Shown here in pieces: positions 2,022 through 47,410 of a stretch of DNA of 64,000 bases. The first letter of the stretch is position 1. Each line of letters opens with the position of its first letter. The notes below the pieces were generated by a model. That model was given only the letters and a program-made list of their open reading frames with translations. It was not told the DNA's origin and ran no database searches. Made by a program: the position numbers and the translations under genes. This stretch comes from Selaginella moellendorffii (lineage: Eukaryota > Plantae > Lycopodiophyta), in contig NW_003314267.1 in the NCBI RefSeq assembly GCF_000143415.4, positions 2,831,839 through 2,895,838 on the forward strand, written 5' to 3'.

Positions 2022-3684
2022 TGTAAGCAACTAATTTTTCCATCCTACTTTAGTCACTTAACCACACTTTCAACCACTTGGAGGAGTCTCATTCACAACC
2101 TCCTTAAGTCCAATTCAGGACTTGGGACTTGCTGGCCCCAATAATGGAATCCATGCCACTCATCCTTTGCACTTGGTCCAAGTGCTCCATATGTCTGGTC
2201 CCGAGATCGACACCCCAAGGTACCATTGACATACCGACCCATTATGTTAAGCCCATGCCCATTCACCTTAGTCACACCGGTGGTCCAACACCACCTACAT
2301 CGCAATCTCGTCTCTCAACAACTGGGCCATCTGTCCAAGAGTGACCATCCAAGATCCACTCCTTAGCATCCTTAACATGCCCGCAGACAAGGGAAACCAC
2401 CTTCCCCAATATCCCTTTTACAATCCCCACCAAGTCCCTTTTCTGTCCATGGCCGAGTTTGCCTACACTGCCACTAGGACAAGGCCCCCAGGCCCGACCA
2501 CTAAGTTCCACTGTCCTCTGGGACTTTCTCACCACATGACCGTATCCTTAGTCACCACACCAGGATTGCTCCTCTTCCATTCTATAGTCTAGGACTGGAA
2601 TACTGTGGCCTTACGCGAGTCTTGTGGGTACTCTCCCCTCTTTCCGCCTTTGGGTGCTCTAGCCATGGGCTTAGAGCAAGGTGTAAGAGACTAAATTTTC
2701 CATTTTACTTTAGTCACTTAACCACATGTCTGACCACTTGGAGGAGTCTCATTGACAACCTCCATAAGTCCAACTCAGGACTTGGGGCTTGCTAGCCCCG
2801 AGAATGGCATCCATGCCACTCAACCTTAGCACTTGGTCCAAGTGCTCCACGTGTCCAATCCCATGATCGACACCCCAAGGTATCACCGACGTACCGGCCC
2901 GTTACGCTAAGGCCATGCCCATTTACCTTGGTCACACTGGTGGTCCAACACCACTTGCATCTCCGTCTTGGCCCTCCAAGACTAGGCAAACCATCCGTGA
3001 GTGGTCATCTCAGATCCACTCCTTAGCATCCTTAGGATGCCCACCGACAAGGGGAATAGCCTTCCCCAATATCCCTCTGTCAGTCCCCACTAAGTCCCTT
3101 TCTGCCCCTGGCCGTGTTTGCCAACACTGCCACTGGATCGAGACCCACAGGCCCGACCACTAAGTCCTACGGTCCTCTGGGACTTCCTCACCACACGACT
3201 GTGTCCTTGGTCACTACCCCAGAGGACTGCTCCTCTTCCTTTCCACAGTCTGGGCCTTTGGGACAACATTTCGGAACACCGTGGCCTTACGCGAGCCACC
3301 TGGGTACTCTCCTCGCCTTCTGCCCTTGGGTGCTCTAGCCATGGGCTTAGAGCGGGTTCCATTGAGCCACACCAGGTATCCAAGTAGGTAGTGCCACCCA
3401 CACTTGGACTGGGAGCATCGGCCAGTCGATCTCCCGGGGGAACTAGAGCCGGCTCTTGAACACTTCACCAAGCTACCCCACTTGTCGGTCCGTGTTCACT
3501 CTAGTCTTGGACTTCCCAGTGGGCATCTCATCACCCAACACTGGGTCCGGCCTTCCTGGGCCAAACTGGCCTTTCCTGGCCAAACTGGCTCCACTGCAGT
3601 CCTCCCCCTACTATACTTTTGGAGCTCACCAAACCCCCCAGGGTCTGGGAGACGAACGCTTTGGGCTTTCACCCTCTCAGGCTC

Positions 3685-4192
3685 CGGACTCGGACTCGGA
3701 CTCGGACTCAGACTCGGACTCGGATTCAGACTCGGACTCGGGCTCGGGCCCGGTCTCGGCCTCGGCCTCGGTCTCGGTCTCGGTCCCGATCTCGGTCTCG
3801 GTCTCGGTCCCGGTCTCGGTGTCGACTTCGGACTCCATCTCGGACTCCATCTCGGACTCCATCTCGGGTCCATCTCGGGTCCATCTCGGACTCCATCTCG
3901 GACTCCATCTCGGACTCCATCTCGGGTCCATCTCGGACTCCACTTCGGACTCCAACTCGGGTCCATCTCGGGTCCACCTCGGACTCCATCTCGGACTCCA
4001 TCTCGGACTCCATCTCGGGTCCATCTCGAACTCCACTTCGGACTCCAACTCGGGTCCATCTCGGGTCCACCTCGGACTCCACTTTGGACTCCATCTCGGA
4101 CTCCATCTCGGGTCCATCTCAGACTCCATTTCGGACTCCAACTCGGGTCCATCTCGGACTCCACTTCGGACTCCAACTCGAGTCCATCTCGG
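3685..4192. repeat. LTR-internal tandem arrays: 6-mers GGACTC/GGTCTC followed by 12-mer GGACTCCATCTC and variants
   Basis: Directly visible; equivalent arrays at ~155-845, 8672-9277, 13310-13882, 17385-17630, 62405-62920; related degenerate array in family-B LTR 10345-10580. Confidence 0.95.
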
Positions 4193-4425
4193 ACGCTCCC
4201 ACGTGTCATGTGTTGGTCCTTTTGGGTCCCTTTTTGGAGCCTTGCCTTTTGCTCGCTTCGTGCTCGTTCCTCGAGCACTTCGTTGGGAGTTCCACTCCCG
4301 CTCTTGACTTTTCAAGTCGGAGCTTTTGGTCCAAACGTGTTACGCTCGTTTGGCTCTCGCTTCGGCCACTACCATTTGGCGCCCTTCCGGCTCCACTTTG
4401 GGGCCTAGGGATTTTGTGTCTCACA

Positions 4426-4440
4426 ACTCCACCACCCATA
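4426..4440 (-). promoter_or_regulatory. Polypurine tract of family-A element
   Basis: Minus strand TATGGGTGGTGGAGT abuts the 3' LTR; identical at 10654-10668 (family B) and 17863-17877. Confidence 0.85.
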
Positions 4441-7400
4441 GACGAAGTTCGATGTCCTCATCGAACGGTAAACCATTTTGTAAAGTAACACTCGCATGTG
4501 TTACCATTTCCATCCTTGGCACCTAGCCAATATTTGTCAATGGTTTGACATTGAAGACTCACCATGCCTTTTGCATATGCCTCAATGGTTTGACACCAAA
4601 GGCTCACCATGCCTTGCCTATCCTCTAAGGACGGTAGTCTCCCCAACTTAGAGACTGATTGGACCATATGTAGTGGTTCTCTCCTTTTATTGGTTTAGTT
4701 CTCGCTAAACCTCTTAGAGACCCTTCTCTAAGTCAATCCCACTACTCCTTCTTGAGTAGTCTTAATTTCCATCTATTGAATGTTTGCACCTTGGAACTTT
4801 TACTCTTTTGACTTTTGGAAGTCAATTTCCTAGGTGTCTCCAACACCTTGCATTGCACAGATTGTGCGACTCCACTTCCCTATCCTAGGAAGTTCATTAC
4901 TTGAGGGCACCATCATCCTCTCTTCTATTTTGTGCCACCTTGGGCACTAAGTTCCATTTATCACACTTTGTGCTAGGGTTGTCCATCGCCCTATCATTTG
5001 GCTACCTTACCGCTCCCTTCCTTGGAGCTTCCACTTTCGCCAAATCGGAGCAATTCGGAATCCATCCTAGTGATTTGGGACTCGAACCCAAGCACTAGAG
5101 GGTCGGGACTCGAACCCAACCTCCGTATATGCATCTACGGACGGCATCACACAAGATGCCTGGCGTGACTCCCCACGCCGGTGCACCAACTTATTTTTAA
5201 AGCGTGCTACAGATCACAGCTTAGGAACCTAGTTCCTCCACACTGCCAAGTCCTCTCACTTGACATGTCTGTGATCATGCATGGACTCCTCCATGCTTGG
5301 CCCCATGGCCCACCCTTTTTGAAGATATCACCTTCAACTAGGGTCTTTGTTCCCCCGACGTGCCAATCTCACTTGGCAAGTCCTCCGACCATTGTAACAT
5401 GATTCCTGCATAAGCGTGAAAGTCCTTGACCATCGACTTTCGTTCAAAGCCCTCTCTTTGAACACTCGGGAACTACTTCCCTAACCTTGATAGCCTTGCC
5501 TCATGGCAAGCTTCAAGACCACGCTTTTGCTGCGCCACTCTGATTTCGCGCATTCCATGAACCATTTACACTTGGCCTTTCTAGGTACTACGCTACCTAG
5601 AATCGTCTTTGGGAACCTTGAAGGAACTCTGTCCCTCAGCTTGCTAAGGCCTCCACTTTCGCAAGCTTTATAATTGCCATATAGTCTAACATGGACAATT
5701 CCATATTTTAGACTCTCCATGGCATCACGGTTGCTAGCAACAACATCCTCGAGCACCCTCTTGATTCTCCACTCCCAACTTTCATAACCACTGTTGGATA
5801 TGCCCTTTGATTTCTATGGTTCAGTTCCATCCCAATACTACTTGCCTTTGGCTTCACACCTTTCCTTCTGTCATTCTCCTCCAGACCAGGAGGATAGCTT
5901 TGCACTTTCTATCATGCCTTAGCAAGTATTCTTAGGGATGAACCTACCCAATAGCCCAGGGAGTGGTTCCTCAATCCGGGTATGCTCAGCTTATAATCCC
6001 ACACACTGGGATTACATTGTTGCTTATGGGCCTTTACATGCCCATCACTAGCCTTGCCAAAATTCCAGTTTTGGCTTTGTCCAACTTGGGTAGACAGTCC
6101 TCTCCTGTCTCCGCAACCTTGGACATTTAGATAGCACCTTCTATCCATCATTCGCTAGGGACTTAGTCCCTTGGGCTTTATCCATTGCCCTCGCGACATC
6201 AAACACCACCTTCTGGTGTTCTAGAGTGTTCGGGTGTCCCAATGATAGCTTTCTTGACAATGAGTATTTCCTTTTATGACATTGACTTACTATATCGCAA
6301 CATAAGCAACTTATCTCCTGTAAGGGTATATTCGACTTCTCTATACTAGAAGTCTTGGGTAGCTACCTTCTACCCGTTTAACCAGTTATTTTGCACCTCT
6401 TGCTTAGTTGCCTCATAGTTGTCAAGTTCTACAACTCATTGCTTGATGCTTGCACACCTCCATCATTATCTGGGTCACCGCACTCCAACTGCATGCTCTG
6501 CCGCTTAGGCTATGCCATTCCCATTTCCATTGGGATTCCTTTGGCAAGGGGTTCTCATGAACCCACCAACATAGCCTCAAGGTATCTGATTCACACCTTG
6601 GCACATTTGGTGTCTCCACACCATCAGCTCCACGAGCCTACCTCTATGACACTTCCCCTTCGTGTTTAAGTCTTTGCCAAGACCAACACCGCTCTTTCTC
6701 ATGCCAACCATCCGTTAGCACTACACCATAGAGGTCACACACAACTTTGTGTCAAAGTTGTTTTCTTCTGGGAACACCTTTCCTATAACTTTAGCATGGC
6801 ACATTTTGCCATCGATGAGATACTCTCTGTTCTCATCCTTGGATCCTATGATCCCCCCCCCCATCCTTTGTGGGGTACAACGCACCTCAGTCCAAATGCT
6901 TCTATCAGTCCTTTTAGGACCATCCCTTGACTCTACTTGAGTTGTCTAGCAGTTTTGGACTTGGTTAATCCACCGACCCGTAAGGTCCTACTTGTGAGGC
7001 ACTAGCTCACTGGAATACACTTCTTGCATTCCGGTCCTACTCAAAAGGACTATTTTCACAAGTGTTACTCCGACACTTGATTTTGTTCTCTGGGGGCAAC
7101 CTTTGCCCCTTAGGACTACTTGTCCATGTGATGAGAATACCAACTCATCCACTTAATACACCCCCAACTCCTTGGGTTGTTCCAGCATTTATTAAAGGTA
7201 GCCCCGGCTACCATTTCAAGGACTTGAGTCCTCTTCCGTATTTGACCTTCCACGGTCATTACCTTTGGTTTCACATTCATGAGCACCAACCTCAACTATA
7301 TGAGGATAATCTTGTGACTCCTTTATTGTTTTGGAGTCTCTATCTTTCCCGTGATCCCAACTTTAGTTGTTTACCACAACAACCTAAGCCAATTTGCTGA

Positions 7401-7653
7401 GACAAATGCTCATCCGGATCACATCCTCAACTCAATGAGGAAAACCTTGCACTGTTCCCAAAATCCCAAAGTCGTTCCATTATTGGCCCTTTTCTATCCA
7501 CCACCTCGTCTACAAGTTCACACATGAACTGTAATGGAGAGCCATGTCTTCCCGACTTGCTACTCCTCAAGGATAGGCCCACTCCTCGGACCTTCCGATG
7601 CCAACACTAGTGGTGATATACTTGAGCACCAATAAAAGTCGGACTAAGGAACA

Positions 7654-7665
7654 GCTCCGATACCA
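7654..7665 (-). promoter_or_regulatory. Primer binding site, initiator tRNA-Met type
   Basis: Minus strand TGGTATCGGAGC, 3 nt inside the 5' LTR (consensus TGGTATCAGAGC). Confidence 0.88.
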
Positions 7666-9538
7666 AATTTTAAGCGACTAAATTTTCCATTTTACTTTAG
7701 TCACTTAACCACATGTCTGACCACTTGGAGGAGTCTCATTGACAACCTCCATAAGTCCAACTCAGGACTTGGGGCTTGCTAGCCCCGAGAATGGCATCCA
7801 TGCCACTCAACCTTAGCACTTGGTCCAAGTGCTCCACGTGTCCGATCCAATGATCGACACCCCAAGGTATCACCGACGTACCGGCCCGTTACGCTAAGGC
7901 CATGCCCATTTACCTTGGTCACACTGGTGGTCCAACACCACTTGCATCTCCGTCTTGGCCCTCCAAGACTAGGCAAACCATCCGTGAGTGGTCATCTCAG
8001 ATCCACTCCTTAGCATCCTTAGGATGCCCACCGACAAGGGGAATAGCCTTCCCCAATATCCCTCTGTCAGTCCCCACTAAGTCCCTTTCTGCCCCTGGCC
8101 GTGTTTGCCAACACTGCCACTGGATCGAGACCCACAGGCCTGACCACTAAGTCCTACGGTCCTCTGGGACTTCCTCACCACACGACTGTGTCCTTGGTCA
8201 CTACCCCAGAGGATTGCTCCTCTTCCTTTCCACAGTCTAGGCCTTTGGGACAACATTTCGGAACACCGTGGCCTTACGCGAGCCACCTGGGTACTCTCCT
8301 CGCCTTCTGCCCTTGGGTGCTCTAGCCATGGGCTTAGAGCGGGTTCCATTGAGCCACACCAAGTATCCAAGTAGGTAGTGCCACCCACACTTGGACTGGG
8401 AGCATCGGCCAGTCGATCTCCCGGGGGAACTAGAGCCGGCTCTTGAACACTTCACCAAGCTACCCCACTTGTCGGTCCATGTTTACTCTAGTCTTGGACT
8501 TCCCAGTGGGCATCTCATCACCCAACACTGGGTCCGGCCTTCCTGGGCCAAACTGGCCTTTCCTGGCCAAACTGGCTCCACTGCAGTCCTCCCCCTACTA
8601 TACTTTTGGAGCTCACCAAACCCCCCAGGGTCTGGGAGACGAACGCTTTGGGCTTTCACCCTCTCAGGCTCCGGACTCGGACTTGGACTCGGACTCGGAC
8701 TCGGACTCGGATTCGGACTCGGACTCGGGCTCGGTCTCGGTCCCAGTCTCAGTCCCGGTCTCGGTCTCGACTTCGGACTCCATCTCGAGTCCATCTCAGA
8801 TTCCATCTCAAGTACATCTCGAACTCCATCTCGGACTCCATCTCGGACTCCATCTCGAACTCCATCTCGGGTCCATCTCGGGTCCATCTCGGACTCCATC
8901 TCGGACTCCATCTCGGGTCCATCTCGGACTCCACTTCGGACTCCAACTCGGGTCCATCTCGGGTCCACCTCGGACTCCATCTCGGACTCCATCTCGGACT
9001 CCATCTCGGGTCCATCTCGGACTCCACTTCGGACTCCAACTCGGGTCCATCTCGGGTCCACCTCGGACTCCATCTCGGACTCCATCTCGGACTCCATCTC
9101 GGGTCCATCTCGGACTCCACTTCGGACTCCAACTCGGGTCCATCTCGGGTCCACCTCGGACTCCACTTTGGACTCCATCTCGGACTCCATCTCGGGTCCA
9201 TCTCGGACTCCATTTCGGACTCCAACTCGGGTCCATCTCGGACTCCACTTCGGACTCCAACTCGAGTCCATCTCGGACACTCCCACGTGTCATGTGTTGG
9301 TCCTTTTGGGTCCCTTTTTGGAGCCTTGCCTTTTGCTCGCTTCGTGCTCGTTCCTCGAGCACTTCGTTGGGAGTTCCACTCCCGCTCTTGACTTTTCAAG
9401 TCGGAGCTTTTGGTCCAAACGTGTTACGCTCGTTTGGCTCTCGCTTCGGCCACTACCATTTGGCGCCCTTCCGGCTCCACTTTGGGGCCTAGGGATTTTG
9501 TGTCTCACACAAGGTTCCGTTAAGCCATGCCAGGTATC

Positions 9539-12500
9539 TGTAAGCCACAAATTTTTCCTTTCCAATTTGCCAACTTACCTTGTCTACCCGATCAACACTA
9601 CCTTGTCTTGTACTAAGTTCTCTCGCCAAGGTTCTCACTTATTGTACCAGGTCCTACTTGGTTCTACTTGGTTTCAGCTACTCACTGCACAAATAACAGA
9701 GAGTTAGCCTTCCATCCACGGATTCCCAAATCCCTCCCAATCCCCCTCCCCGGGTTAGACTGGACTTAAGGTTCGGCTACACTCCCCCTAGGCACAAGCA
9801 GCCAAGCACACCAAGCCTCCAGGTTCCTAACACCCCTTGGTACAATAAGACTTGATCATGGAACCCTCTAAATCCCAAACCTTGGCTGCAACACTTGCTT
9901 TGGGACATCGGCACGAAACACTGTGGCCTAACGGCCCAGTATGGGTACCTCTACCCCCCCACTTCCATCCCGAAGGGAAGGCCCAAGCCCCTAAGAAGGG
10001 CGAGGACCAATGAGCCACAAGGTACTGAAGTGGGGCACCACTCCACATGAGCCGGGAGCACCATAGTCGGTTTCCCTTTCGGGAGTGGGAGCTGCTCTTG
10101 AGCACTTCCCTGGGTGGCCCCTCCAGCACCACCCAAGCCCATGCTCACTCCCACCCAAGGCCCCTCGGCCCCAGTCTCAACCTCAAGTCAGTTTGGAAGC
10201 ACCACTAGAGAGTTCCTTCAAGACTGGTTCCTGGACCTCATTATCCCTACTATACTTTTGGAACCCCCTGCAGTGCCCCCCCCCCCCCCCCCCCCCCCGG
10301 GAAATGCACGCTTTGGGCTTTCACCCCTTGACCCGTATTAGTATCTCGGACCCAACTTTGGACTCAGTCTCGGACTCGATCTCGGACTTGATCTTGGACC
10401 CGATCTCGGACTCGACTTTGGACTCGACTTCAGACTCGGTCTCGGACCCAATTTGGATCTCGGACTCTATCTCAAACTCGGTCAGGAACTCGGTCTCCGA
10501 TTTGGCCTTGGACTCGATCCCGGACTCTATCTCGAACTCGGTCTCAGAGTCGGTCTTGGACTCGATCTTCGACTCGGTCCCATCCGATGAACTCTTTGTC
10601 ATTTCGGTCATGCTTTTGAGGATCCTTTACCCTCGGGGAGTCAGTTCCTTACAACTCCACCACCCATAGAAGAAGTTCGATGCCCACATCAAACGTCTCT
10701 TTTTATCCTACGACTTGTTGACCATGTCTCCAGGGGCATCCCCCCACTTAGCGGTGTGCCTAAGTTAGCCTCCCCGGCCAAGAGCCCATGACAACGGAAT
10801 ATAGGTGTCCCTATACCCTTCACCTCACCACGCCCTAGTATGGGATCAGGACTTGAACCCAGCCTTGCTTTACTAGAGGGTTGGGACTCGAACCTAACCT
10901 CCATAGAATACATCTATGGATTCGACATCCCCACGGGGAGTTAGGCGTAGTGCCCTACGCCTGGTCGACCTAGCCAACCCATGCTAATTAGCTTACCTTT
11001 AGCGTGCCTTTGGGTCCCAATATATGCCATTGCTCAACTTCACAAATTGATATTCTAATTGAACTTTGCATAAGTACATAGAGTTCTGCATTGCAGAAAT
11101 TCCTCCACTAGATCTCGCGCGTTTGCTAGGTTCTCCTCCGGTTCCCATGTTGCTTCGCAGTGTGGAAATCCTTTCCACTTCACAAGGAACTCTCTCACCT
11201 CGCGTCCTGGTCGCTTGCTCTTGCGTGCATTGAGGATGGCCTTGACTTCGTATTCCTCTTCCCCTTGGATAACCTCAGGTAAAGGTCTTACTTGGTCCTT
11301 GCAAAGCGGATCCTCAAAGTACGGCTTGAGTAAGTTCATGTGGAACACTGGGTGCATCTTCCCCATCTCTCAAGGAAGTTGGAGATGGTAAGCCACTTTA
11401 CCGATTCGTGCCTCAATCTCCTAAAGCCCCACAAACCTACTTAAGAAACTCAAGATCAATTCATTTGTAGAAATACATGCATTTTTACCTTTGGGTCAAC
11501 TTCCGGCTGATCCCACTTGGTAGCCTGAGGTTCTTGGTGTTCAGCCAGACCTTCTCCCCAGCTTGGAACTCTACATCCTGACGCTTCTGGTTCACGTACT
11601 TGGTTTGCCTTTGTTGAGCTCGTTCCAAGGAATCCCTCACTAGATTCCAGATGTTGAGTCTTTCCACCGTGAATGCTTCCACTACGGGTAACTCTCCATG
11701 ATACTCGGCCACGCCGAGTTCCACAGGACCTTCAATAGCTCGCCCATTGATGACTTCCCATGGACTCACCCCGATACTTGAATGTGGTGAGTTGTTATAA
11801 CACATTTCCGCAAGTCCCAAATGACTTACCCAATCGGTCTGGTCTCCTGAGACATAGCATCGCAAATAATCCTCTAGCTGCCTATTCACCCTTTCCATTT
11901 GTCCGTCTGTCAAGAAGTGTTCGTGCCATCAAACTTGACTTAATACCCAATACCTGTCTGTGGGTGATAAGCTGTGCTGAATTTCAACTTAGTGTGATAC
12001 TATTCCAAGAGAGTCCTTCAGAACCTACTAGTGAAGATCTTATCTCGATCTGAGATAATCTCTTCCAGCCTTCCCCGCACTTGAACCACTTATTTGAAGA
12101 ACAACTTTGCCACACCTTCCACATCCACTTCCGTTGTGGTGGGTATGAAATGTGCCATTTTTGAAAATCGGTCCACCACCACGAATATCGCATCAAACCC
12201 CTCGCTTGGGGGGAGTCCCGTGATGAAGTCCATCATAAGACATTTCCACGGACGATCTGGAATTGGGATGCTTTGCAACAAGCCCCCACTAGCCTTAGTC
12301 ACGGCTTTTACCTGCTGATATTTGGACATGTCTTTACATAGTCTTGGACATCCGTAGCCATATCTGGCCAGTGATACTTCCTCTTGAGTAAGCCCATCAT
12401 CTTGGGCACTCCGCCGTGTCCCGCAAGAGGTCCGTCATGACACTCTTCTAAGGCAACCTTCCTTAGTTCCCCTTCTGGAACATACACCCTCGTTTGTTTG

Positions 12501-13160
12501 TAATAGATGAGTCCATTGCATTCCGCATAGCCCGTTTTCTCTTCTGCTGGCAGCTCACCTCTCTGGTGAACTTCCCGTGCCTCTAGATTCCTTAGCAACA
12601 CTTCTTGTGCTAAACCATCGTTCTCATATGCTGTCCGCACATCGTCCCAAAAGGTAGCTGTTGCACTGGATATCGCCAACTTCAAGCTCGCTTTTCGACT
12701 TAGCGCATCTGCCACGATGTTGCTCTTCCCAGGCTTGTACAGGATTTCACAATCAAACTCGGCCAAGGCATTGGCCCACCGACCCTGTTTCCCTCTTAGG
12801 TCGGGCTATGACAAGAAGTGTTTCGTTGCCACATTGTCCGTGTAAACCTTGAAGTGTCTCCCAAGGTAGTGTTGCCACTCCTTGAGTGCCTTAACCACCG
12901 CAAACAGTTCCTTCTCGTGGGTAGGCTACTTCCTTTGAGCCTTATTCAACTTCTTCGAGAAGAACACTACTGGATGGTCGTCTTGCTTCAAAACTGTGCC
13001 CAACGCAATGTCTGAAACATCCATTTCTACCTCAAAATCCTTACCAAAGTCTAGTAATGCCAACACAGGAGCCTTCCTCAACTTCCCTTTGAGGTGGACG
13101 AATGCCGCCTCGCATTCCGCTGTCCATACCATCTTCCCTTTTCCTTTCTCGGTTATCCCA
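9539..13160 (-). mobile_element. 5'-truncated Ty3/gypsy chromovirus (family B, Galadriel-like): 3' LTR 9539-10653, PPT, 3' UTR, pol fragment
   Basis: LTR TGTAAG...CTTACA; PPT 10654-10668; RNase H/integrase/chromodomain coding on minus strand; abrupt junction back into family-A LTR at ~13160. Confidence 0.9.
11055..13160 (-). pseudogene. pol: pol fragment: RT connection, RNase H, integrase, chromodomain; contains two GT-AG introns (11907-11953, 11437-11488)
   Basis: WTAECEAAF..LK; TDNVATKHFLS..RWANALAEFDCEILYKPGKSNIVADALSRK; [12 protein letters not shown]; [20 protein letters not shown]; HPQTDGQMERVN after splicing; HPVFH; YEVKAILNAR..FLVKWKGFPHCEATWEPEENL; several stops and a frameshift near 12320. 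Confidence 0.92.
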
Positions 13161-14097
13161 TCACCCAACATCTGGGTACAACCTTCCTGGGCTAAACTGG
13201 CCTTTCCTAGCCAAACTGGCTCCATTGGAGTCCTCTTCCTACTATACTTTTAGAGCTCACCAAATCCCCCAGGGTCTGGGAAACAAAGGCTTTGGGCTTT
13301 CACCTCTCAGACTTGAACTCGAACTCGGACTTGGACTTGAAATTGGACTAGGACTCAAACTCAGACTCGGACTCGGGCTTGGGCTTGGTCTCGGCCTCGG
13401 CCTCGGTCTCGGTCCCAGTCTCAGTCCCGGTCTCGGTCTCGACTTCGGACTCCATCTCGAGTCCATCTCAGATTCCATCTCAAGTTCATCTCGAACTCCA
13501 TCTCGGTCCATCTCGGGTCCATCTCGAACTCCATCTCGGGTCCATCTCAGACTCCATCTCGGGTCCATCTCGGGTCCATCTCGGACTCCGTCTTGGGTCC
13601 ATCTCGGATCCATCTTGGACTCCATCTCGGTCCATTTCGGACTCTATCTCGGACTCCATCTGGGGTCCATCTCGAACTCCATCTCGGGTCCATCTCAGAC
13701 TCCATCTCGAGTCCATCTCGGATCCATCTCGGAATTCATCTCGGACTCCATTTCAGGTCCATCTCGGACTCCATCTCGGGTCCATCTTAGACTCCATCTT
13801 AGACTCCATCTTAGGTCCATCTCAAACTCCATCTCGGACTCCATTTCGGACTCCATCTCAGGTCCATCTCGGATCCATCTCGAGCCCCTTTTCTAGGGAC
13901 TCTTTTATTGCTCACTTCATGCTCGTTCCTTGAGCACATCATTGGGAGTTCCACTCCCACTCTTGACCTTTCAAGTCGGAGCCTTTTAGTGCAAACGTGT
14001 TAGGCTTGGTGCAAACGCTCATTTTGCTTTCGCTTCGGCCACTACCACATGGCACCCTTTCGGCTCCACTTTGGGGCTTAGGGATTTGTGTCTCACA

Positions 14098-15129: not shown

Positions 15130-16830
15130 AAACTTTCAAGACTTAACTAACTTCCTTTTACCTATAACTTCACATAAGTTCACTTCAACACAACAATAAT
15201 ATGCTTAAGCATTAAACATCATGCCCATATTTTTAACATCCAATATTAACATTCGTAAAATACAAATGAATATCTAAAAGCCAATCATGAAAATTATATC
15301 TTTGGATATCCATATTGCACTAACACTCTTTTTCAATCACCTTCAAGATCTAATGTGAAACTAAAACATTAAAAAGAAAAATGACATAAAAATCAAACTC
15401 CTCATCACTTAACATAACAATGCCACCTCCTAGTTGGTTCTAATAGATTGGATGTTATTTCCTTTGGGCAATACATTTGCGACCATTTTTCTTGCCAAGT
15501 TGATGATACTTTGTGTTCTTTTAGTTGTCATTTATAAGTTGTTTAGCATGCTATTTGAAATCTTTGATAGTTTAGTTTTTATCATTAAGTTTTTTTGATG
15601 ATACACTAGCTATTGAATATTATTGGATGGTTAATCCAATATTTTCCCACTTTAGTGATCTTGGTGGTTCCTATACTCTAATATTGGTTTATCGGATGAT
15701 AACTTACTTGAAATACTTTTGTATTCTAATTTAAGATTTATTCACTCATAATTAAGTCTCTATGATATCATTGTTTCAGACTTTGATATTTTCCATCAAT
15801 TAATCTTTGAGTTTGGGCTAGTGTATACAAACTGGCTTTGCACTTCATGTGTATAGTGAAATCTTTAGTCATAGGGTAGCTACTGTGTACTGGTCAGATA
15901 AGGTCACATCACTTGCCTCTTTATTAATGTTTCTTATTTCGTTAAAAGGGCATGATCATGTAAACAACTCTAATTGATTATTTACAGTAGTATATTTAAA
16001 CCTTACTGACGAGTTTAGTTTCTTTGCTCATGAAGGTTGGGGCCTTTGGCTTCTCTCTATATACCATCTATGGGCAGGGGTGTATCACACTTTTGTAAGC
16101 TGGGTGACAACCAATGTAGCAAGGGTGGCTAACTCTGTTGGTCATTTCCTTGTCGGCAACAACCGAAAGGTGTCTAAGTTGGTAGCACATCTGTGTTAGA
16201 CAAAGAGGTTACCCTAACTCATTTAAGTTAGTGCATTTCTCACATAGTGTGATCACTATGAACATTTTCTAGAGTTGTTTTCTTGCCAGTGGTCTAGACT
16301 AGAGTATGCATCGACGAGGACATTGATCTTCCCTAGGGGGCAGAATGTTGCGAATGTGATTGTGGGTATCAAAAACTACCTATATTCTTTCCTTACTACC
16401 ATGATGGCAGGAGGTTGGTATTGCTGGTCCCTTTTTCAGTCTCCACTTAAGCTAGTTGAGAAATTAGTCTTCACGTATGCACTTGACCAGATGAGCATAA
16501 GGACGGAATTACTAAGTGCTATTAGTCAAGCATACTTGATTTGGTTAGAGAAACTCATTCGTTGATTTGCACTTGCTAGTGTTGGGAACCCCTGCAGTAT
16601 TGATCTTACTCCCTCAATATTCACTAGATGATAGCTTACCATGTTTACCAAACACCCTCACTATCATGTCCTCTATATTAGTTTTATTTGATCCCAAATG
16701 TTATTTATAAAAATGTCTAGATTCGCTCATTTGGCATATCTATGGAATATAAAGATTGTTTTAAACATAATGGTGTTCATCCCGTATCTAAATTCACAAT
16801 CTAGAGACATTCCATATTTAATAAGTTTCA
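15130..16830. repeat. Degenerate family-C repeat (LTR-like) fragments
   Basis: 15130-15425 is a direct copy of ~59440-59750; 15430-16830 is an inverted copy of ~55540-57100. Confidence 0.7.
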
Positions 16831-16831
16831 T

Positions 16832-19800
16832 CCCGACCACTATGTCCTACTATCCTTTGGGACTTCCACACCATGTGACTATATCCTTGGCCACTACACC
16901 AGAGGATTGCCCCTCTTTCTTTCCACAATCTGGGACTTTGGGACAACATTTTGGAAGACTGTGTCTTTACACAAGCCTCATGGGTACTCTTCCCACCTTC
17001 TGCCTTTGGGTACTCTAGCCATAGGCTTAGAGTGAGGTTCCATTGAGCCATGCCATGTATCCAAGTAGGTAGTGCCACCCATGCTTGGATTGGGAGTATT
17101 GACCATTCAATCTTCCAGGGGAACTAAAGTTGGCTCTTGAACACTTCACCAAGCTACTCTACTTGCCAATCTGTATTCACTCAAGCCTTAGACTTCCCAA
17201 TGGCTATCTTATCACCTAACAACTGGGTATAGCCTTTCTAGGCCAAATTGGCCTTTCCTGGCCAAATTGGCTTCACTAGGGTTTAACCCCCACACTCTCC
17301 CTATTATACTTTTGGAATGCCTTGCAGCGCCCCCCCTTGGGGGATGATCACTTTGGGCTTTCACCCAACACCCTGTATTAGTATTTGGACTCGGACTCGG
17401 TCTCAAACTCGGACTCGAACTTGGTCTCAGTCTTGGTCTTAGTCTTGGTCTCAATCTGAGTCTCGGTCTTGGTCTCAGTCTTGGTCTCGGTCTCGGTCTC
17501 GGTTCCATCTGAGACTCCATCTCGGACTCTATCTCGGGTCCATCTTGAGTCCATCTCGAACTCCATCTCAGGTCCATCACAAACTCAATCTTGGGTCCAT
17601 CTTGGGTCCATCTCGGACTCCATCTCAGACTCTTCCATGTGGCATGTGTTGGTCCTCTTATGTCCTGTTTTTAAAGACTCACTTATTGCTCACTTTATGC
17701 TTGTTCCTTGAGCCCTTTATTGGGAGTTCCACTCCCGCTCTTAAATTTTCGAGTCGGAGCTTTTTAGTCCAAACATGTTACTCTTGTTTGGCTTTCATTT
17801 TGACTACTACCATGTGGCACCCTTTTGGCTCCACTTTAGGGCTTTGGGATTTATGTCTCACAACTCCACCACCCATAGACAAAGTTTGATGTCCTCATCA
17901 AATGATAAACCATTTTATAAAGTAATACTAGCATATGCTACCCTTTCCATCCTTGGCACATAGCCCATATTTATCAATGGTTTGACACTGAAAGCTTACC
18001 ATGCCTTATCCATCCTCTAAAGAGCATAGTCTCTTCAACATAGAGACTCATTCAACCACTTGTGGTGGTTTTTTCCTTTTATTGGTTTAGTTCTCACTAA
18101 ACCTGTTAGAAACACCTTCTTTATCTCAATCCCGCTACTCATTCTCAAGTAGTCTCAGTTTCCATCAATATAACCTTTACACTTTGGAACTTTTAATTTT
18201 GACTTCTCGAAGTCAAGTTTTGGGTGTCTTTGACACCTTGCATTGCACATATTATGCAACTCCACTTCCCCATCCTAAAAAGTTCTATACTTGAGGGCAC
18301 CATCATCCTTTTTTCTATTTCATACCACTTTTGGCACTAAGTTCTAGGTATCATAATTTATGCTAGGGCTGTCCATGGCCCTATCATTTAGCTACCTTAC
18401 TGCTCCCTCCTTTGAAGCTTTCACTTTTGCCAAATCGGAGCAATTGAGAATTCATCCTTGGAAACATATTACCTTTCCCACCATCCATTAGCATCCAACA
18501 CATTAGTGTTCCTAGCTTAACTTTACCATTTGGATTCTTTCCCATGATTCCCATAGCTCTTTTCTTAACCACTAATCTTTTGCTCTTATCCTTTGATTAT
18601 TACACCTAGCAACATAGGATTACTACCTCTATTCTCAATGTATACTTTAGGTTCTATACCAAAGACTTTGTTTTGCCAAATCCAGAGGGTGTTCACCCCT
18701 AATACGTCTCTTTAGCATTTTCTGTTGTGGGCTCTATCCATGGCCCAACTTTGTGACCCTCCCATGGGTCTTTTATAGAGACTAATTTCTTCAGACTCAC
18801 TATGCTATTGCATTGACACAGTTCATTTCCCTTATGTGTTCTTCCCACTTGGTCACCTTGACTAAGCTACACCATCATTAATAATTTAAGTCAACACTTT
18901 GAACTAGAAATCTTATTCCTTAACCTCATAAGGACCTTGTCCTTGCTTTAGCCATAAGATCACCTAGTGATCTAACCTTGACACCTGTTATGGACCCTTG
19001 GCTGGAAGGGCTGACTTGGGTGCACTGCCAAGTGTGGGGGATGCCCCCAAGGTCATGGTTAACAACTTAAAGGTCTGGAAGGCTTAGTATCTATTGGCAA
19101 ACTTGGTAATGTACTGAGATTGGGTGTCCCTATCTCATTTACCACGTCCTTGGTGCCACTTACCCCAAAAAGTTCAAGTTAGATATATTGAACTTTCACA
19201 CTAAGCAATCTAACCGTGCATCACAACTCCGGGGCATCCCCCGCTTGGTGGTGTGCCCAAGCCCATCTCCTTACTAAAAATCCATAACCACCGAAAAATG
19301 AGTATCCTCATATTCCAAACCATCACCGTGCCCTAGTGAGTTAGGACTCGAACCCAAGCACTAAAGAGTCGGGACTCAAACTCAAACTCAGTATATACAT
19401 CTATGGATGGCATCACCTAAGATGTCTGGCATGACTCCCCATGCCAGTGCACCAACTTATACTCAAAGTGCACTATAGATCACAACTTAAGAACTTAATT
19501 CCTCCATATTGCTAAGTCCTCTCACTTGACAAGTCTGTGATCATGCTGTAAGCAACCAAAGAGAACGACTTGAGAGACAATCCATGGGGTTCAAATATAG
19601 AGAGAAAGGGCCCATGAACAACAGTGTGTAAACTCCTAAGTTTGGACTTCCTGGGAGGTNNNNNNNNNNNNNNNNNNNNNNNNNNNNNNNNNNNNNNNNN
19701 NNNNNNNNNNNNNNNNNNNNNNNNNNNNNNNNNNNNNNNNNNNNNNNNNNNNNNNNNNNNNNNNNNNNNNNNNNNNNNNNNNNNNNNNNNNNNNNNNNNN

Positions 19801-33972: not shown

Positions 33973-36269
33973 AATATCTGTCCCCCGATGCCAATAGCAC
34001 TTTTAAATAAAGAAGTACTAGCAAAAGTCCCAGCTACGCTGGGAGCATTGTGTTTATTTCTGATATTTTAATAATTTCAAAGAGTTGTAAGCGTATTTGT
34101 AATTTTTAACATAATCATAATTATAAGATATATAGTTAAACATAACATAATATTTATATTAAAAATATCTTCAACAATTGACTCCATCACCAACAAACAT
34201 CATAACATAATAAATATAACTCAGTACATTATATTATATTTAAAATTCTGATTGTTGACTGAAGTCTTGGATATTCTGTAAATGGAATTTCTCACTGTGG
34301 GATCCCATGGCCAGATGAGTCATTTTTTATTAACTAATTTCTTCTTTTATTTGAAATCTCTATATAATTGATAAAAATCTTATTATTTGATGATTTATTA
34401 AACTATATAATTACTCCTCTTAACAAAGTATGTGCTACTTCGGTACACTCGATTATAATGATGTTAAAAATATATTTAATATATATTTAAAAACTCACTT
34501 AAAGTGCATACATCTTTTAAATCTAAAAAATATAAACATTGTTATGGAGTTTCTCTATTCATCATTTCAGACTGAAAGTTTTGGAATTGCATAATAATAA
34601 GTGAAAGACGTTAGCTTTATGTGTTATATTTTCTTTTAAAAACTTTTAATATTTTACATATTTATCATTGATACTCCCTTTTTACCTAATATTTATATTC
34701 ATGCATTCTGAGAGTAATATTTAAAATATAAAGTATTCTATTATATATCATAAACATTATTTCTGTATTTATTTTTATAAATCTAAAATAATAATATTAT
34801 TTATTTTTATTCATGCTTTTATATTTAAAATTAAGGCTTTATAACACTGTTATGAATGCTGAAACTTTATGATGATAAATGAATGGTAATTTTTTACTCT
34901 ATACTGGGGTAGAGTAGGGTTTGATGATATATAATCTTGACTTTATGCTAGAGCTATAATATATCAGAAAATTCATAAATGGTATATAGATAGGTTTAAT
35001 ATCATATAATTAAAATTCTGTATATGGTCCATGTACTAATGTTATCTCAATCATATTTATACCTTATTATGTTTTCATGTATAAATGCAATGTAGGATAA
35101 AGTGGTAGAAAATTTATGATATTATATAAATCTTAGACTACATCTTAGCCAACCATAAGTTTACTAATGAGAAAATATTTTACACAACAAATATCTAGAA
35201 CTATTAACTCCTCTATTTTATGTAAGAAAATATCATATTTTTATAGAAATTACTTTTTTATATTCTAATTTAGATACTTTTTTCTTTTATTATATTTAGT
35301 ACTTTTTAAAATTTATTTAAAAATATTCCTTAAAATTACATTATATTTTATTTTGAATTATTTTTTCCATATTTGTATTCGATATCCTGTCCCTTCATAA
35401 TATTTACATTTATGCTTTTTAGAAGTACTATCTAAAGGTTAAGGTATTATATTTTATATCATTAAGTTTCTTTGTGGATATGTTTTTATATAGAGAGAAT
35501 GCTAAAATGAATTAAGATTTTTACCTTTATTTTTAATTTATTTTTATATAAATTTACATTGAGACTAAAATATTCAATGAAAGTTATGTTTTATCCTGAT
35601 ATTATGGTATTGATGATTCATAATATTGATTTTTTCCTAAAACCATAACATATCAGAAAATAAAAAAAGGTCCATTGATTGCTTTATTAAAAATAAAATT
35701 TTAAGTGATGAGGAATCACATTTTTTAAGATGGTAGCCTTTTGTATTTGTCTAATATTGTCTCAATGATATTTTATGTATCTGTTTTCCATGTATCAATG
35801 CACAAATTATTAGTGTAAATAACAGACTTATTACACATTCATCAATGAATCTACTCATATTGAGTTGTCTCTTAGCTTACATGTAGTCTCATATTTGTGC
35901 AATATCATAAAGTTAAAAATCATAAGATTATGATAAAAGTATAACTTATTTACAAGATATAATAGCTGGAGCTATTCAACTCTTCTATTTTAAGTTATAA
36001 AATATATAATTTCTATAGTCACTACTTAATTTACTTTTAACTTTATAGTATATCTTTTATTGTGTGTACTATATACCATCTTTGTAAAAAAATTATGTTT
36101 AATTTTAATAATGTAGCATTGAATTAATCAGATACTCTTTGTTCTATAAAGTTTTTATTCTATAGAAGAAAGAGTATATGATTGATTTGATAATACATGT
36201 TTAAACATATTGAACATATTTTTTGTTTTAAATATATCGTACATAGTAGACATAATAAAAAAATTCATC

Positions 36270-36625
36270 AATGAATACCATCTTTGTACAACTAAATGTT
36301 TAAAATCATTTGAACCTAGTGCATTATATTATCTTGGATCAGTTGTCTAATTGCCTTTTATATGTATTACGATATCATTTATGCCTCCTTGAAAATTTGT
36401 TAATTTTAACACTTCATTCTCTATTTCTTACAATATTGTGAATGCATTAGTATAGGGATTTATCTCTTTTAATAATTTATCAAGACCACCCATTAGTTGC
36501 TCATTGCATTTAGAATTGTGTTTGTTTTTTGATTTTTATCTCCGTTGCTTGAGCAGTATCTAAAATATTTCATTGTGAATAAGCTGCATATTTTTCATTA
36601 TTTGGTTTGAAACTTCCAATATATC
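36270..36625 (-). pseudogene. Helitron Rep/helicase N-terminal remnant
   Basis: YIGSFKPNNEKYAAYSQ*KYLDTAQATEIK..NSKCNEQLMGGLDKLLKEINPYTNAF and DPR*YNA match Helitron-like N-terminal motifs (AQLYIxD, NPY, RRYNxP). Confidence 0.7.
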
Positions 36626-38199
36626 TACGCTGGGAGCATCATGTTTATTCTTAATGTTTTAGTATTTCAAAAATTTGAAATCATGATTATAATTTTAATA
36701 TAATCATAATTATAACATACATAGTTAACATAACATAATATAATATTTATATTCAAAATCCATTTTAAAAATATAACATAATAAATAATATAATAAATTT
36801 AACTTATAACATAATATAACATTTAAAACTCTGAGTGCTGCATGATCTTCTATAAATGGAATTTTTCACTGTGGGATTCCATGGCCAGATGAGTCAATTA
36901 AATATTGAGGCTTGGTAACTATTTTATTTATTTAAAATCTCCATATAATTGATCTAAAATTTTTCCTCTTGAAAAAATTTGTTTCTTAAGTATACTAAAA
37001 TATAATGGTTTCAAAAATAAAGATTTAAAACTCACTTAAACTATATACATCTTATAAAATTAAAAAATATAACCATTTTTATTGAGTTTTATTTTTCATC
37101 TCTTTAGACTGAAAGTTTTGGAATTGCATGATACTAAGTGATAGAAATTACCTTTATGTGTTATATTTTTTTAGAAAAATTTCAAAATTTTACATATTTA
37201 TCTATGATATTCCCTTATTCCTAATATTTATATTCTTACATTTTGAGAGTAATATTTAATATTAGAAGTATTCTACTTTATATCATTAGCATTATTTCTG
37301 TATGTGTTTTTTAATAGAGAGAATGCTAATGTAAAATAAGTTATTATCTCTCTATTTTCATGGATTTATATTTAAAATTAAGGCTTTATTACAATATTAT
37401 AAAGGATGAAATTTTATAATGATAAATGAATGGCAAGGTTTTACTCTATACTGAGGTAATAATGATATATAAAAAATTTCTTTATTCTAAAAATATAATA
37501 TACCAGAAAATTCATAAATGGTATATAGATAGATTTAATATAATTAATGTTCAATTGATGATGAATCACATTTCTTTAGATGGTTCTTGTACTAATGTTG
37601 TCTCAATGATATTTATACCTTATTATTTTTGTCATGTATAATTACAATGTAAGAAAAAATGTTAGAAAATTTATGATATTACATAAATCTTAGACTACAT
37701 CTGAGCGATATATATAAAATTAGAGCCACCTACTGCAATGATCAATGAGGCTCTTTCATTTAAATATATTGGATGATTAGTGAAAGATCTCGATTCAACT
37801 TTGATCTTTATTTATATATCAATAAACGTTTTACAATTCTTTCTTTACATTTCAACTCCCTTGTTTTCCTTTTCGTTCCAACTTGTTTTCATTCTGCATT
37901 TGTTCTCGGCAGCCACTGAAAATGTTTTCCAGCCATAGACATAAGAGATGTTGATGTCCGGAGAATACAAAAAAGAAAAACGCAAGCAAATGAAGTTAGT
38001 AATGGTGAAAAGGAAATAGGAACTTACTGCTGGCATTTTCTTTTAAGCCACTTGAACTTTCTTGTTCTCAAGGCCGGGAGCACTCCTTTTCACACCACTC
38101 CTTCACAGCTTGTCGGTCTTAATGCTGGAATTTTTGACAAATCCATGGGTGTTGCAGAACCTGATCGAACCTGAACCTGATTGGTCCTTGCTTGTTTGC

Positions 38200-39464: not shown

Positions 39465-41030
39465 TTAGCTTTTACTACGGCCTTTTGGACGTGCTGTGGT
39501 TTCCTCCTGTGATGCTTTCCTTCCTGGCATTAGAGAGTAACTGAGGATGTAAGATTGCACTGCCTGAGCAAAGCCAGGCTTGTACGAGAAGAGCAGCCCA
39601 CGGAAGAGCTTCCCATCGATGGAGGCTTCTAGCGTGTATCTGTAGTTGAATACGTCGCTTACTTTAGCCTCGAACATCTTCTCGCCTAGCGGCTGAACGT
39701 GAGCTTGAAACTCTGTAGCATGAGTTTGACAGAGAAAATTTGGAGAGGTCCAAGGTTTTCTGCAGATACCTCCGTGAGATGAAACCAAGCTCTTGTCCGC
39801 ATCCCGTTGCTTGTCTAGCACAAATGGCGTGGCACAATACTCTTGCCGCCTTCTCTTAAGTTCCTTACGCATGGGTAGCTTTGGTTCTGATGGATCTTTC
39901 TCCCTCAGCATCTTTTCACAGAAAAACGGCAACCATATTGTCAGCAGCAATGTCAATAAAAGAAGAAGCCAACCTGTGTCGAGGAAATACATGTCATCCA
40001 GAGCTTCAAACTCTTCGTTACATCCCCCATAGAAGAATAATATGCCTCGCCCTGCGTTCACCAGCTCTTGGCATCAGCTCGGCACTAGTCGTCTTTACCT
40101 CCCGCCATGCCATTGTTTCTGGAAACACAAATGAATTCGCAAGTTTAAAACCAGCACAATGTATGTACCTGTGTCCAGAATATGAATGTCGTATAGATAG
40201 GCATTACCACCGTTCTTGCCACCCATGACAATGCAACAGTTCTTATTATGGATATCCCGAGGAATAGGTGAGACTCCAGTGGTAGAAATCTTCTTCCAGA
40301 AAAAAGTATCTACAGGAAAAAAAAGAGTTTAGAAGAAAACCAGGAAAGATAACAGGATATTACTCATGTTCAAAACATGGAGGTCGTTGTAGTACTCCTC
40401 CTCTGAGGGATCACTGGATTTCCCACATCCCCCAAACACTAACAGGTTGTCACCGATGAGAGATGTGCTATGTCCTTCTCTCGGAGCAGGAACATCACCA
40501 AAAACGTCGGGTTTCCCCCAGGTGTTGGTAGCTGCATTGGATGATAAGAACAAGAAAAAAAATTTGATAGAACTCGCTTACCAGTATCCAAAACAAAGAG
40601 ATCATCTAGCGGGCTGGTTCCATCGGTACCACCAAACACATAGAGCTTAGACCCGACGGCCGTGGAGCTGTGGCTGTCCCGAGGAGAAGGGTGCGTTCCT
40701 TTCATCACAGGCTTGCTCCAGATGTACGTCCCTGCACGATCCCAGCAAAACATGATCAAAACCATATTTCCAGTTGAATAGCGAAGAGCAAGAGAGTGAA
40801 AAACCTTGATTCTAGTCGTGGTTCCAGCCTCGAGAACCTGGAACAAACAGGGACTTGAGAGACTCGAAAAAAGAATGGCAACGAGCAAGAGAGTGAAGAA
40901 CCTTGATTCTAGTCATCGATGACAACGTGAATCCCCTCATTTTCCGAGACGTCATCCCTGTCGTGCGCTCCATCAGAGCCTCTTCGCCTTTCACTCCCAA
41001 TCCTCGTCGCATTTCCGAGCAGAGCACGTC
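39465..41030 (-). pseudogene. Kelch-repeat protein gene copy with missing exons
   Basis: WSKPVMKGTHPSPRDSHSSTAVGSKLYVFGGTDG; WGKPDVFGDVPAPREGHST; FYGGCNEEFEALDDMYFLDT; C-terminal YTLEASIDGKLFRGLLFSYKPG. Confidence 0.8.
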
Positions 41031-44000
41031 GATCTACCAAATGCACCTGCGCAGGCGGATGCTGGCGGATTTATTCCCCACGAAGTCTGGAAGGCGTCGA
41101 GCCTNNNNNNNNNNNNNNNNNNNNNNNNNNNNNNNNNNNNNNNNNNNNNNNNNNNNNNNNNNNNNNNNNNNNNNNNNNNNNNNNNNNNNNNNNNNNNNNN
41201 NNNNNNNNNNNNNNNNNNNNNNNNNNNNNNNNNNNNNNNNNNNNNNNNNNNNNNNNNNNNNNNNNNNNNNNNNNNNNNNNNNNNNNNNNNNNNNNNNNNN
41301 NNNNNNNNNNNNNNNNNNNNNNNNNNNNNNNNNNNNNNNNNNNNNNNNNNNNAGAATAAGTGACGCCAGTATATGCTATTATTATACCGGCTCTTTATGA
41401 GTATGATGATGATGACTAGCAAGGACCCCAGCTCCGCTGGGAGATATAGCATACCCAAGATAAATACATCTTCTTTTCTAATTTTACAGTGTTGATTCTA
41501 ATTATAAAGTATAAAAGATATTTTAATTATTCATGTTTATAGTAGTATGTTACATCTGTAGTAAATTTAAAGTATGTTAGATTAGATCTGTTCCACTGGG
41601 AGATATAGCACAGCCAAGATAAATACATCTTCCTTTCTAATTTTACAATGTTAGAAATTTTGATTGTATACAAGGTTCAATTTATCTTAATTTTGCTACT
41701 ATTCATCTTAAAAGAAATGCAAAATAATGCAATTAGATAATAATGCAAGTTTTGGAGAAGATATAATCATTTTTTAATCATCATTAAATTTGAATTTGAA
41801 TTCTTTTATTGCCTTTATAAAAAGGTACACAACGCTAAACACACGTACAAGATTGATGCCATGCTTTAAAAGCAATTGAGTTTTCACAAAACCAAAGAAT
41901 TATATACTGCCAAAAAATAATAGGTTAGTTTGGGGAAATTATATTTTTGATTACATACTAAGCTTTCAAAAATTTATAAAGATAATACTTATCACTATGA
42001 TTTATATTAATTTTAAGATAAATGTTGTTGAAAACTCTACTCTTGAAGACTAAATATTATGTTGAAAATTAATTATACATATAAATATACTTATAAATAA
42101 AAATAAAAACATTTTCTAAATTTCCTCAAGTATGTGCATGTTTTTGATATTTATATGATCAATAATTTCTCTAAATAGCAAAAATAATATAGTTTAAAAT
42201 ATAATAACTCATTTATATTTCAAAAAATAGCACACTTTTATTTTATATCTTGCATTAAATATTCCACTATCTTGTTTTTTAACTAAAAAAGCTATCCTCT
42301 AAATATTAACTGTTTTTATAATATTCAAATTTGCTATCAGTAATTTCTTATATATTTATCATCTTGTAAAACCAATCTATAACACTTTCATTCTATTGCC
42401 ACTATCTACATCCATTGGAGTTCTGAATGTGGGAATATGTTGATATTATAAGTGGACTTAGCATATATATCAAAAGCATGTAATTGATTTTTTAGACTTT
42501 GACTTAAAATATAAGACTAAAATACATAATTAGATTATAATACTATGGAATTAAATTTAGAAAGAATCATGATAAAAACTCTTAGGGATTTCCTTCATAG
42601 TAGGCTTAGTTTAATTCTGATTTGGAGAGAAGCCATAATTGATTTATTCTAGAATGGAATTCTTGTTAAATAAAGAATATCACTGTTGATTACAATTAGT
42701 TACACAACACTACCAGTAAAGCAATCCAGTAAGAAATGTTAGCAATAAACATAGAAAATAACATTATTATATTCATAAGAAAATCTAAACATGTTAGCAC
42801 AGCATTTTATTTAGGATAAGAGCTTTTAACCCATTTCTAATCCATCAAAAATGAATGTCCAAAAATTGTAACANNNNNNNNNNNNNNNNNNNNNNNNNNN
42901 NNNNNNNNNNNNNNNNNNNNNNNNNNNNNNNNNNNNNNNNNNNNNNNNNNNNNNNNNNNNNNNNNNNNNNNNNTAAGAAATGCCAAAAGTTTTATAGAAA
43001 ACCTTATTACTATAAATAACTCTTCAAGAGTGTAATTACAAAAGGTATATTGTTTTAATTTTTAAATGAATGCGCATAGAAGAAAAGAAATTTGCAATAC
43101 AAATCCATGAATCTTTGTTTGGATTAAGGTTTTTTATGAAAAAAAATTAGGATTTGTGAATTTTTCATGGTTGTATTAACCATCACATTACACTAAGAGT
43201 ACAATATATCATACTTTAATTTTCTCATTTAATTTAAATATACAGATAAGTGAAGTAAAATTCACTAACTTTTCATGCTTATAAATACCTTTATGGAGAA
43301 CATAAAATTACTCATAAAAGTTTTTCAAGCTGGAGTTTGTTAATTCTTGAAGTGTTATTACAATTAGATAGTGAATCTGACTAATACATTAGTGACACTT
43401 ATTAATATAAAGAAATTTCTAATTATTTTGATACACAATTGTATACTCATGTTGATTAGATGTAATTACTTTTAATTTTACCTGATTTCTTTTTCCTTTA
43501 TTTCTTCATCTTAGAAATGCATATAGAAAACCTTATTATTATAAATCAATAATAAGTTGATAATATTATATCACTTTTTTTTATTATTATCATGGTATTA
43601 TAAAATAGTTCTTATTATTGACTTATTGATATCAACATTATATCATGCTCATTGAATAGCCACTGCTTGATAAGAATTAACACCCTTTCAGCTGTTGAAT
43701 CTGTGATAATAACAAATACAACTCAAAAACAAAATCAATCTATGCTATCAAAGTTTTACTCAAGGAACTTCATGTGCTTGGATGTACCAGCAAGGACTCC
43801 TTAGCTTATGGAACTGCAGAGGTAGCTCAAGTTTTTCTTTCATCTCCAAGAAGTTTCTTAAGTCTTCAAGAGTAGTGTTTTCTAAAAAAAACTAATGATA
43901 TTTTTGAGATATTTTTTAGAATTGCATGTTTGGAATATATACATTACCAAAGATTTCTCTAAATAGCAAAAAATAAATTACATCAATATAAATACTAATA

Positions 44001-47325: not shown

Positions 47326-47410
47326 TCTCTTAGCATCTCTTTTTCTGCTATCTTCTTTAAATCCATTGCCAATCCATTCTAAAATTGTTCATTTTTAATT
47401 CTATAATACA

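Follow-up and report, generated by a model that had tools for sequence, protein, structure and literature searches.

Introduction

That LTR elements move via RNA was classically proven by the loss of an intron on copying, in the Ty intron test (cited in PMC12786077). A 2025 review describes plant LTR elements as generally intronless, with Ogre and EVADE as the exceptions (PMC12786077). In the Ogre elements (Tat lineage, Ty3/gypsy), a stop-containing intron interrupts the polyprotein, is spliced from some transcripts for full translation and is retained in the genome (PMC6317226). In the Ty1/copia elements EVD (PMC5580714) and BARE1 (PMC3735527), spliced and unspliced RNAs occur side by side. 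For the Ty3/Gypsy elements of Arabidopsis, PMC5580714 reports that no conserved splicing was found. Introns also survive retrotransposition in Penelope-like elements, and an intron has been inferred in one Selaginella family of these (PMC8557442).

The genome of Selaginella moellendorffii contains SM1-Galahad, a Galadriel-clade chromovirus described from a multi-copy consensus by Novikov et al. in 2012 (PMC3350952). The family was reported to comprise hundreds of copies that are about 95% alike, many of them with large deletions, and an intact copy was not found. The element is about 7500 bp in total, with LTRs of 1076/1146 bp and a poly-G of 11-25 nt, and copies were reported with LTRs, a PBS (tRNA-Met) and a PPT. 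It was assigned a 1295-aa Gag-Pol ORF that runs to the end of the 'core integrase', followed by two short ORFs (316 and 309 bp), the second of which holds a group I chromodomain (PMC3350952). The sister family SM2-Galahad has the same domains and likewise a group I chromodomain (PMC3350952). Here we describe a chromovirus copy in a 64-kb stretch of S. moellendorffii DNA (hereafter, the window), in which two short GT-AG segments interrupt the integrase, and we compare it with these systems.

Results

The window contains a dead chromovirus copy

Pfam searches of the minus strand gave the domain order RNase H, integrase zinc finger, chromodomain (RT_RNaseH_2, Integrase_H2C2 and Chromo), and a 3' LTR with TG..CA ends (10653 to 9539) follows a purine-rich tract. 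RNase H ahead of integrase, a match to Ty3 integrase, a C-terminal chromodomain and an LTR of this kind place the element among the Ty3/gypsy chromoviruses. In the direction of its transcription, a decayed coding region for RNase H (E 3e-18) and the integrase zinc finger (E 7e-17) lies at 12309-13145 and contains two stops and a frameshift near 12320. The integrase core 5' of the first interruption (11954-12320, three stops) includes MDF at 12233 and SDRD at 12053, which we take to be the motifs of the first two catalytic Asp residues. Intron 1 (11907-11953) is followed by a middle exon of 418 nt (11489-11906), which is free of stops, carries the catalytic Glu codon at 11895 and the remaining integrase core, and aligns to Ty3 Gag-Pol 1269-1389 (PDB 7q5b, E 3.5e-4). 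Behind intron 2 (11437-11488), the last exon (11055-11436, two stops) encodes a GPY/F-type region and the group I chromodomain (about 11252 to 11094; Pfam Chromo, E 9e-16), which also matches the HP1-family chromodomain 1ap0 (E 1.6e-10). A 3' untranslated stretch (10654-11054), with the purine-rich tract at its LTR end, leads into the 3' LTR (9539-10653; 1115 bp, TGTAAG...CTTACA), in which a 23-nt poly-G lies at 10298 to 10276.

The coding pieces contain seven in-frame stops in addition to the frameshift. A search with 43 long polyproteins detected neither gag nor protease nor RT in the 64-kb window. The copy is dead and, besides these three regions, has lost its 5' LTR. On its 5' side, the RNase H region is fused to a partial LTR of a second family (13159-14097), and the element's 5' half is absent here. 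This partial LTR and the pieces at 2021-2677 and 9511-9538 are fragments of a single older second-family LTR, which flank both this insertion and that of a pol-less element described below. Apparently, the Galahad copy landed in the older LTR and lost its 5' half afterwards. Further LTR copies lie at 1-1078, 16832-17863 and 61403-63500.

Two GT-AG segments of host intron size lie inside the integrase

The initial annotation had claimed that two sense-oriented GT-AG segments of 47 and 52 nt interrupt the integrase, that they belong to the size class of the host NSF introns, that each brings a TAA into frame if retained and that removal restores conserved motifs. Each of these claims held. Segment 1 (11953 to 11907, minus strand) is 47 nt long, has GT..AG ends and a GC of 0.40. 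Segment 2 (11488 to 11437, minus strand) is 52 nt long, has the same ends, lies at an AG|GT site and has a GC of 0.27, and the coding DNA flanking both segments has a GC of 0.44-0.50. Retained segment 1 reads HPQT-GIGY*, with the TAA four codons in, and retained segment 2 reads KLTQR*, with the TAA at once.

The host gene for NSF (vesicle-fusing ATPase; 51018-54237, plus strand) has about 21 very short introns. These were called by homology, from two homolog alignments with 21 calls each, as the ab initio parse was judged unreliable. The introns on which both alignments agreed (18 of 21 in each) measure 42-64 nt, with medians of 48 and 49 nt when the full sets of 21 are taken; the calls that differ between the homologs are the first two and one in the middle. 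A 69-aa exon of this gene is 100% identical to SELMODRAFT_407213 of S. moellendorffii, the next genus reaching 88%. Other features of the window include a Kelch-repeat gene exon (50290-50772, minus strand), of which 648 bp are duplicated 10 kb away (40120-40750) at 91% identity, and exons at 47400-47760 (plus strand) that by eye resemble those of a glutathione transferase-like gene and contain in-frame stops, possibly a pseudogene. The stretches 34001-38000 and 42001-44000 are very AT-rich (GC 0.22-0.23) and have internal duplications (for example, 34270-35149 versus 36844-37706), and 15434-16461 and 56082-57101 form a 1-kb inverted repeat of 78% identity.

To place the segments relative to conserved motifs, we compared the integrase with the best 150 of 10,184 relatives found in a full HMMER search. 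Among these 150, HP[QEAS][TSG]xG[QL]xE was uninterrupted in 103 and K[LF]xxxxxGP[FY] in 108. With segment 1 skipped, the HP-to-K distance in the window copy is 139 aa, which is the mode among the matches. With segment 1 skipped, the Asp of SDRD (12053) also stands 36 residues from the Glu (11895), which we take to be the D,D35E spacing. Within the D,D35E triad, intron 1 separates the second Asp from the Glu, and intron 2 lies just 5' of GP[FY] (GPY/F) and the chromodomain.

When 45,954 arbitrary stretches of 42-64 nt were removed from the minus strand, 473 of them (1.0%) had GT..AG ends, so two such segments would occur by chance with a probability of about 1e-4. This value and the host-like size argue against a reading in which the segments are insertions private to one dead copy and have GT/AG ends by chance, with the RNA coming from ordinary intronless relatives. 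Both junctions show a microhomology of 4-5 nt, which is typical of insertions and would suit that explanation, but the published consensus ORF sizes accommodate both interruptions (PMC3350952), and we find it hardly credible. The idea that the introns arose as tandem duplicates of adjacent exon sequence is unsupported. The first 4 and last 5 bases of intron 1 match the upstream 47 nt, but its interior shows no significant similarity (p=0.43); intron 2 gave p=0.046, as one of four tests. A branch-point scan of the introns returned weak TTGAT/TTGAC matches and nothing stronger. In their GT-AG ends, and in a size and base composition like those of the host, both segments conform to U2-type introns.

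Both segments are skipped exactly in transcriptome-like data

We compared the stretch 10950-13150 with four runs, namely the contigs of X15 and the raw RNA-seq reads of X21, X22 and X23 (~12% of each). Run X15 consists of 70,015 contigs (25.8 Mb), a single one of which matches the stretch; on the basis of this size and the single match, X15 was read as transcriptome-like, RNA being presumed. The contig is 2500 nt long at a depth of 11.2, differs from the window copy in 116 letters over 1939 aligned (~94% identity) and diverges to other sequence beyond 13145. This one matching contig omits exactly 52 and 47 nt with CT..AC ends, which correspond to both segments. The raw runs gave eight reads on the stretch (six in X21, two in X22 and none in X23). 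One of the six X21 reads skips segment 1, with a short side of 46 nt, and has four listed variants in common with the X15 contig. A search for junction reads, proposed in the initial annotation, was thus successful for both junctions in the contig and for junction 1 in one raw read, while junction 2 was crossed by none of the eight raw reads of the three runs. The same annotation had held that its idea would fall if no spliced reads existed or if the segments were private to this dead copy. The first does not apply, as one contig and one raw read skip exactly.

A retained intron was spanned end to end by none of the eight raw reads, and the sole matching contig is fully spliced; the depth bins imply that one X21 read runs ~17 nt into intron 2 and that one X22 read enters it by 10 nt or more, a weak signal. 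Exact removal from RNA is thinly documented, by one contig for both introns and one raw read for intron 1 and with X15 presumed to be RNA. Together with their ends, size and composition, it indicates that the segments resemble spliceosomal introns in both structure and behaviour. The interruption of a chromovirus integrase by two introns is confirmed.

Of 103 classified differences between the window and the run, 73 have A/T in the window and G/C in the run. This excess is as expected for the decay of a methylated copy, and the source of the X15 contig is less decayed than the window copy. The joined RNA could derive from an intronless genomic copy. In a mixed family with leaky splicing, rare intronless copies would give both the joined RNA and the integrase, and the intron-bearing majority would be passengers whose introns are real and tolerated and form no regulatory gate. 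The fully spliced, less decayed state of the only matching contig is compatible with this, as is the fact that a consensus reveals the majority state only. However, no intact copy was reported among the hundreds of SM1-Galahad copies (PMC3350952), although an ORF search would catch an intronless autonomous one, and passengers need not preserve canonical splice ends. We judge a mixed family to be unlikely, though well short of negligible.

The element is very likely SM1-Galahad

The window copy and SM1-Galahad are alike in host, LTR size and ends, poly-G, PPT and a group I chromodomain in a 309-bp ORF, and also in a copy similarity of about 95% and in the frequency of deletions. The LTR of the window copy exceeds 1 kb (1115 bp) and includes the poly-G (23 nt). 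The chromodomain lies in a separate ORF, in which the first ATG behind intron 2 opens 103 codons, or 309 bp plus stop. The published '113 aa' for the 309-bp ORF is internally inconsistent, and the published 316 bp for the ORF before it is not a multiple of three (PMC3350952). When the last-exon frame was traced back through intron 2, no ATG was found, so an intron-bearing consensus predicts a 309-bp ORF. In the unspliced window sequence behind intron 1, the second ATG gives an ORF of 318 bp that ends at the intron-2 TAA, compared to the published 316, and the first ATG would give one of 411 bp. With both introns counted, the element would measure 7396 bp plus leader (published length, about 7500 bp), and its spliced product is calculated at 1557 aa, compared with the 1577 aa of SM2-Galahad, which has a single ORF. 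Matched by described features and lengths rather than by sequence, the window element is very likely SM1-Galahad.

Since the consensus ORF sizes of SM1-Galahad fit those predicted from the introns, the introns appear to be the majority state of the family. Both are therefore likely to be family-wide in SM1-Galahad, which indirectly contradicts their being private to the window copy. The initial annotation had also allowed for a prior report in lycophyte chromoviruses. The element itself is indeed already published, but its introns went unrecognised: the accessible main text on SM1-Galahad contains neither 'intron' nor 'splic' (PMC3350952), and the accessible part of PMC2864245 holds no statement on introns in these elements. 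SM1-Galahad was presented with three ORFs and without an intact copy (PMC3350952); the ORF breaks are here identified as spliceable introns.

Intron-bearing copies might instead have multiplied as DNA, either through segmental duplication or because a DNA element captured them, in which case a mechanism based on RNA pools would be unneeded. The nested and truncated window copy and the large deletions common among copies (PMC3350952) are in line with this. It is nevertheless very improbable in our estimation, as hundreds of copies were reported with LTRs, PBS and PPT (PMC3350952) and the 64-kb window has a single integrase copy.

A pol-less partner element and the sister family

A young full-length LTR element without pol occupies 2680-9510 on the minus strand. 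Its LTRs agree at 99.1% over 1001 bp and at 100% over 230 bp, it is flanked by a 5-bp target duplication (CCTTG), and its PPT is identical to that of the Galahad copy; its PBS is presumably of the tRNA-Met type. No polyprotein match was found inside it. The element is likely a non-autonomous partner of Galahad elements, which would imply recent activity of the Galahad machinery. The recent mobilisation of an element without pol indicates that trans-mobilisation happens in this genome.

Such mobilisation is relevant to the possibility that SM1-Galahad is non-autonomous for integrase, with SM2-Galahad acting in trans and intron splicing being incidental. SM2-Galahad is present in hundreds of copies, its 1577-aa ORF is intact and its LTRs are 99.7% identical (PMC3350952), and the pol-less element, with the same PPT, was recently mobilised in the window. 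Yet the exons after intron 1 still encode the Glu and the GPY/F-type motif, along with a chromodomain that has aromatics at the three cage positions, and the exactly spliced form was found in RNA data. Taken together, we regard complementation by SM2-Galahad as improbable.

Searches for relatives with introns at the same sites

Word-indexed protein searches with the middle exon gave no relative among 7 and 117 candidates. The best 150 of the 10,184 HMMER relatives are at most 46% identical, so no member of the family is among them. Of ten clusters of HMMER relatives, four are Haematococcus proteins and the other six are unnamed or 'hypothetical'. A pattern for an intron at the same site had no matches in viral contigs with both His codons, and three in metagenomes, found with the CAC codon only, all three without integrase, so that neither set yielded another integrase with an intron. 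The uninterrupted pattern matched 20 loci, 19 of them gypsy integrases, and none of the 20 had an excess of ~50 nt at site 2 (largest 18 nt). A scan for related loci gave none in metagenomes and one weak match in viral contigs.

Discussion

We propose that the SM1-Galahad-like family copies itself from unspliced RNA and that only doubly spliced RNA encodes complete, active integrase, a reading to which we give a probability of roughly 0.6. Unspliced RNA would yield Gag-PR-RT-RNase H with an integrase stump that ends before the catalytic Glu. This product should suffice for particles and reverse transcription and not for integration. Once both introns are spliced out, the product would also include the Glu, the GPY/F region and the chromodomain. 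An autonomous family would need this double removal for active integrase, and if most copies carry both introns, the RNA that is reverse-transcribed is mostly unspliced. New copies would inherit the introns because of this mostly unspliced pool, as the apparent family-wide retention suggests. In an element with a single ORF, splicing would set the dose of active integrase. In Tf1, the level of integrase is lowered through degradation. Separate pools of translated and packaged RNA have a precedent in BARE of barley (PMC3735527). The spliced RNA still has the PBS, the PPT and both ends, which counts against a separation of pools.

More tentatively, and as something possible rather than probable, SM1-Galahad may have gained ordinary host-type introns in the active site of its integrase and retained them over hundreds of copies made via RNA. 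Unspliced RNA would be sorted to particles and spliced RNA to ribosomes, with the two introns acting as a graded switch. Retention of intron 1 would leave integrase dead, retention of intron 2 alone would give a catalytic integrase without GPY/F and chromodomain, and removal of both would give the full chromatin-targeted enzyme.

If a high-copy family does keep two host-size introns in its integrase, genome RNA and mRNA could be sorted very strictly despite a difference of 99 nt. The share of intronless genomic copies would then be a natural, countable reporter of the RNA pool that is reverse-transcribed. The introns would also account for the description of SM1-Galahad without an intact copy and with a detached chromodomain, and they serve as a warning that ORF-based pipelines may label intron-bearing families dead in genomes with small introns.

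Our search of the open literature (Repbase and the large REXdb files excepted) gave no account of introns within an LTR-retrotransposon integrase. The sister family SM2-Galahad differs in its continuous 1577-aa ORF (PMC3350952). As a single ORF it is without such introns, which suggests that they were gained in the SM1 lineage, and an intronless sister would make this gain datable. Penelope-like elements, in contrast, are non-LTR elements without a DDE integrase and transpose by another mechanism (PMC8557442). As the initial annotation had noted, the known intron cases of LTR elements lie elsewhere, between GAG-PROT and RT in Ogre (PMC6317226) and in copia splicing that gives a Gag-only RNA (PMC5580714, PMC3735527). 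In EVD and BARE1, coding sequence is lost on splicing and a stop arises after gag, and the unspliced RNA encodes full Gag-Pol (PMC5580714, PMC3735527). This logic is reversed in the window copy, where splicing removes non-coding segments that bear the stops, unlike the splicing that gives copia shGAG. The closest precedent, by analogy, is Ogre, with one intron of ~274 bp at the GAG-PROT/RT domain boundary (PMC6317226), whereas the two introns here are of ~50 nt and both are inside the integrase. The window element would thus work like Ogre and differs from it in place. Collectively, these comparisons identify the feature as a variant of splicing-controlled LTR expression that is Ogre-like in its putative working and sited in the integrase active site.
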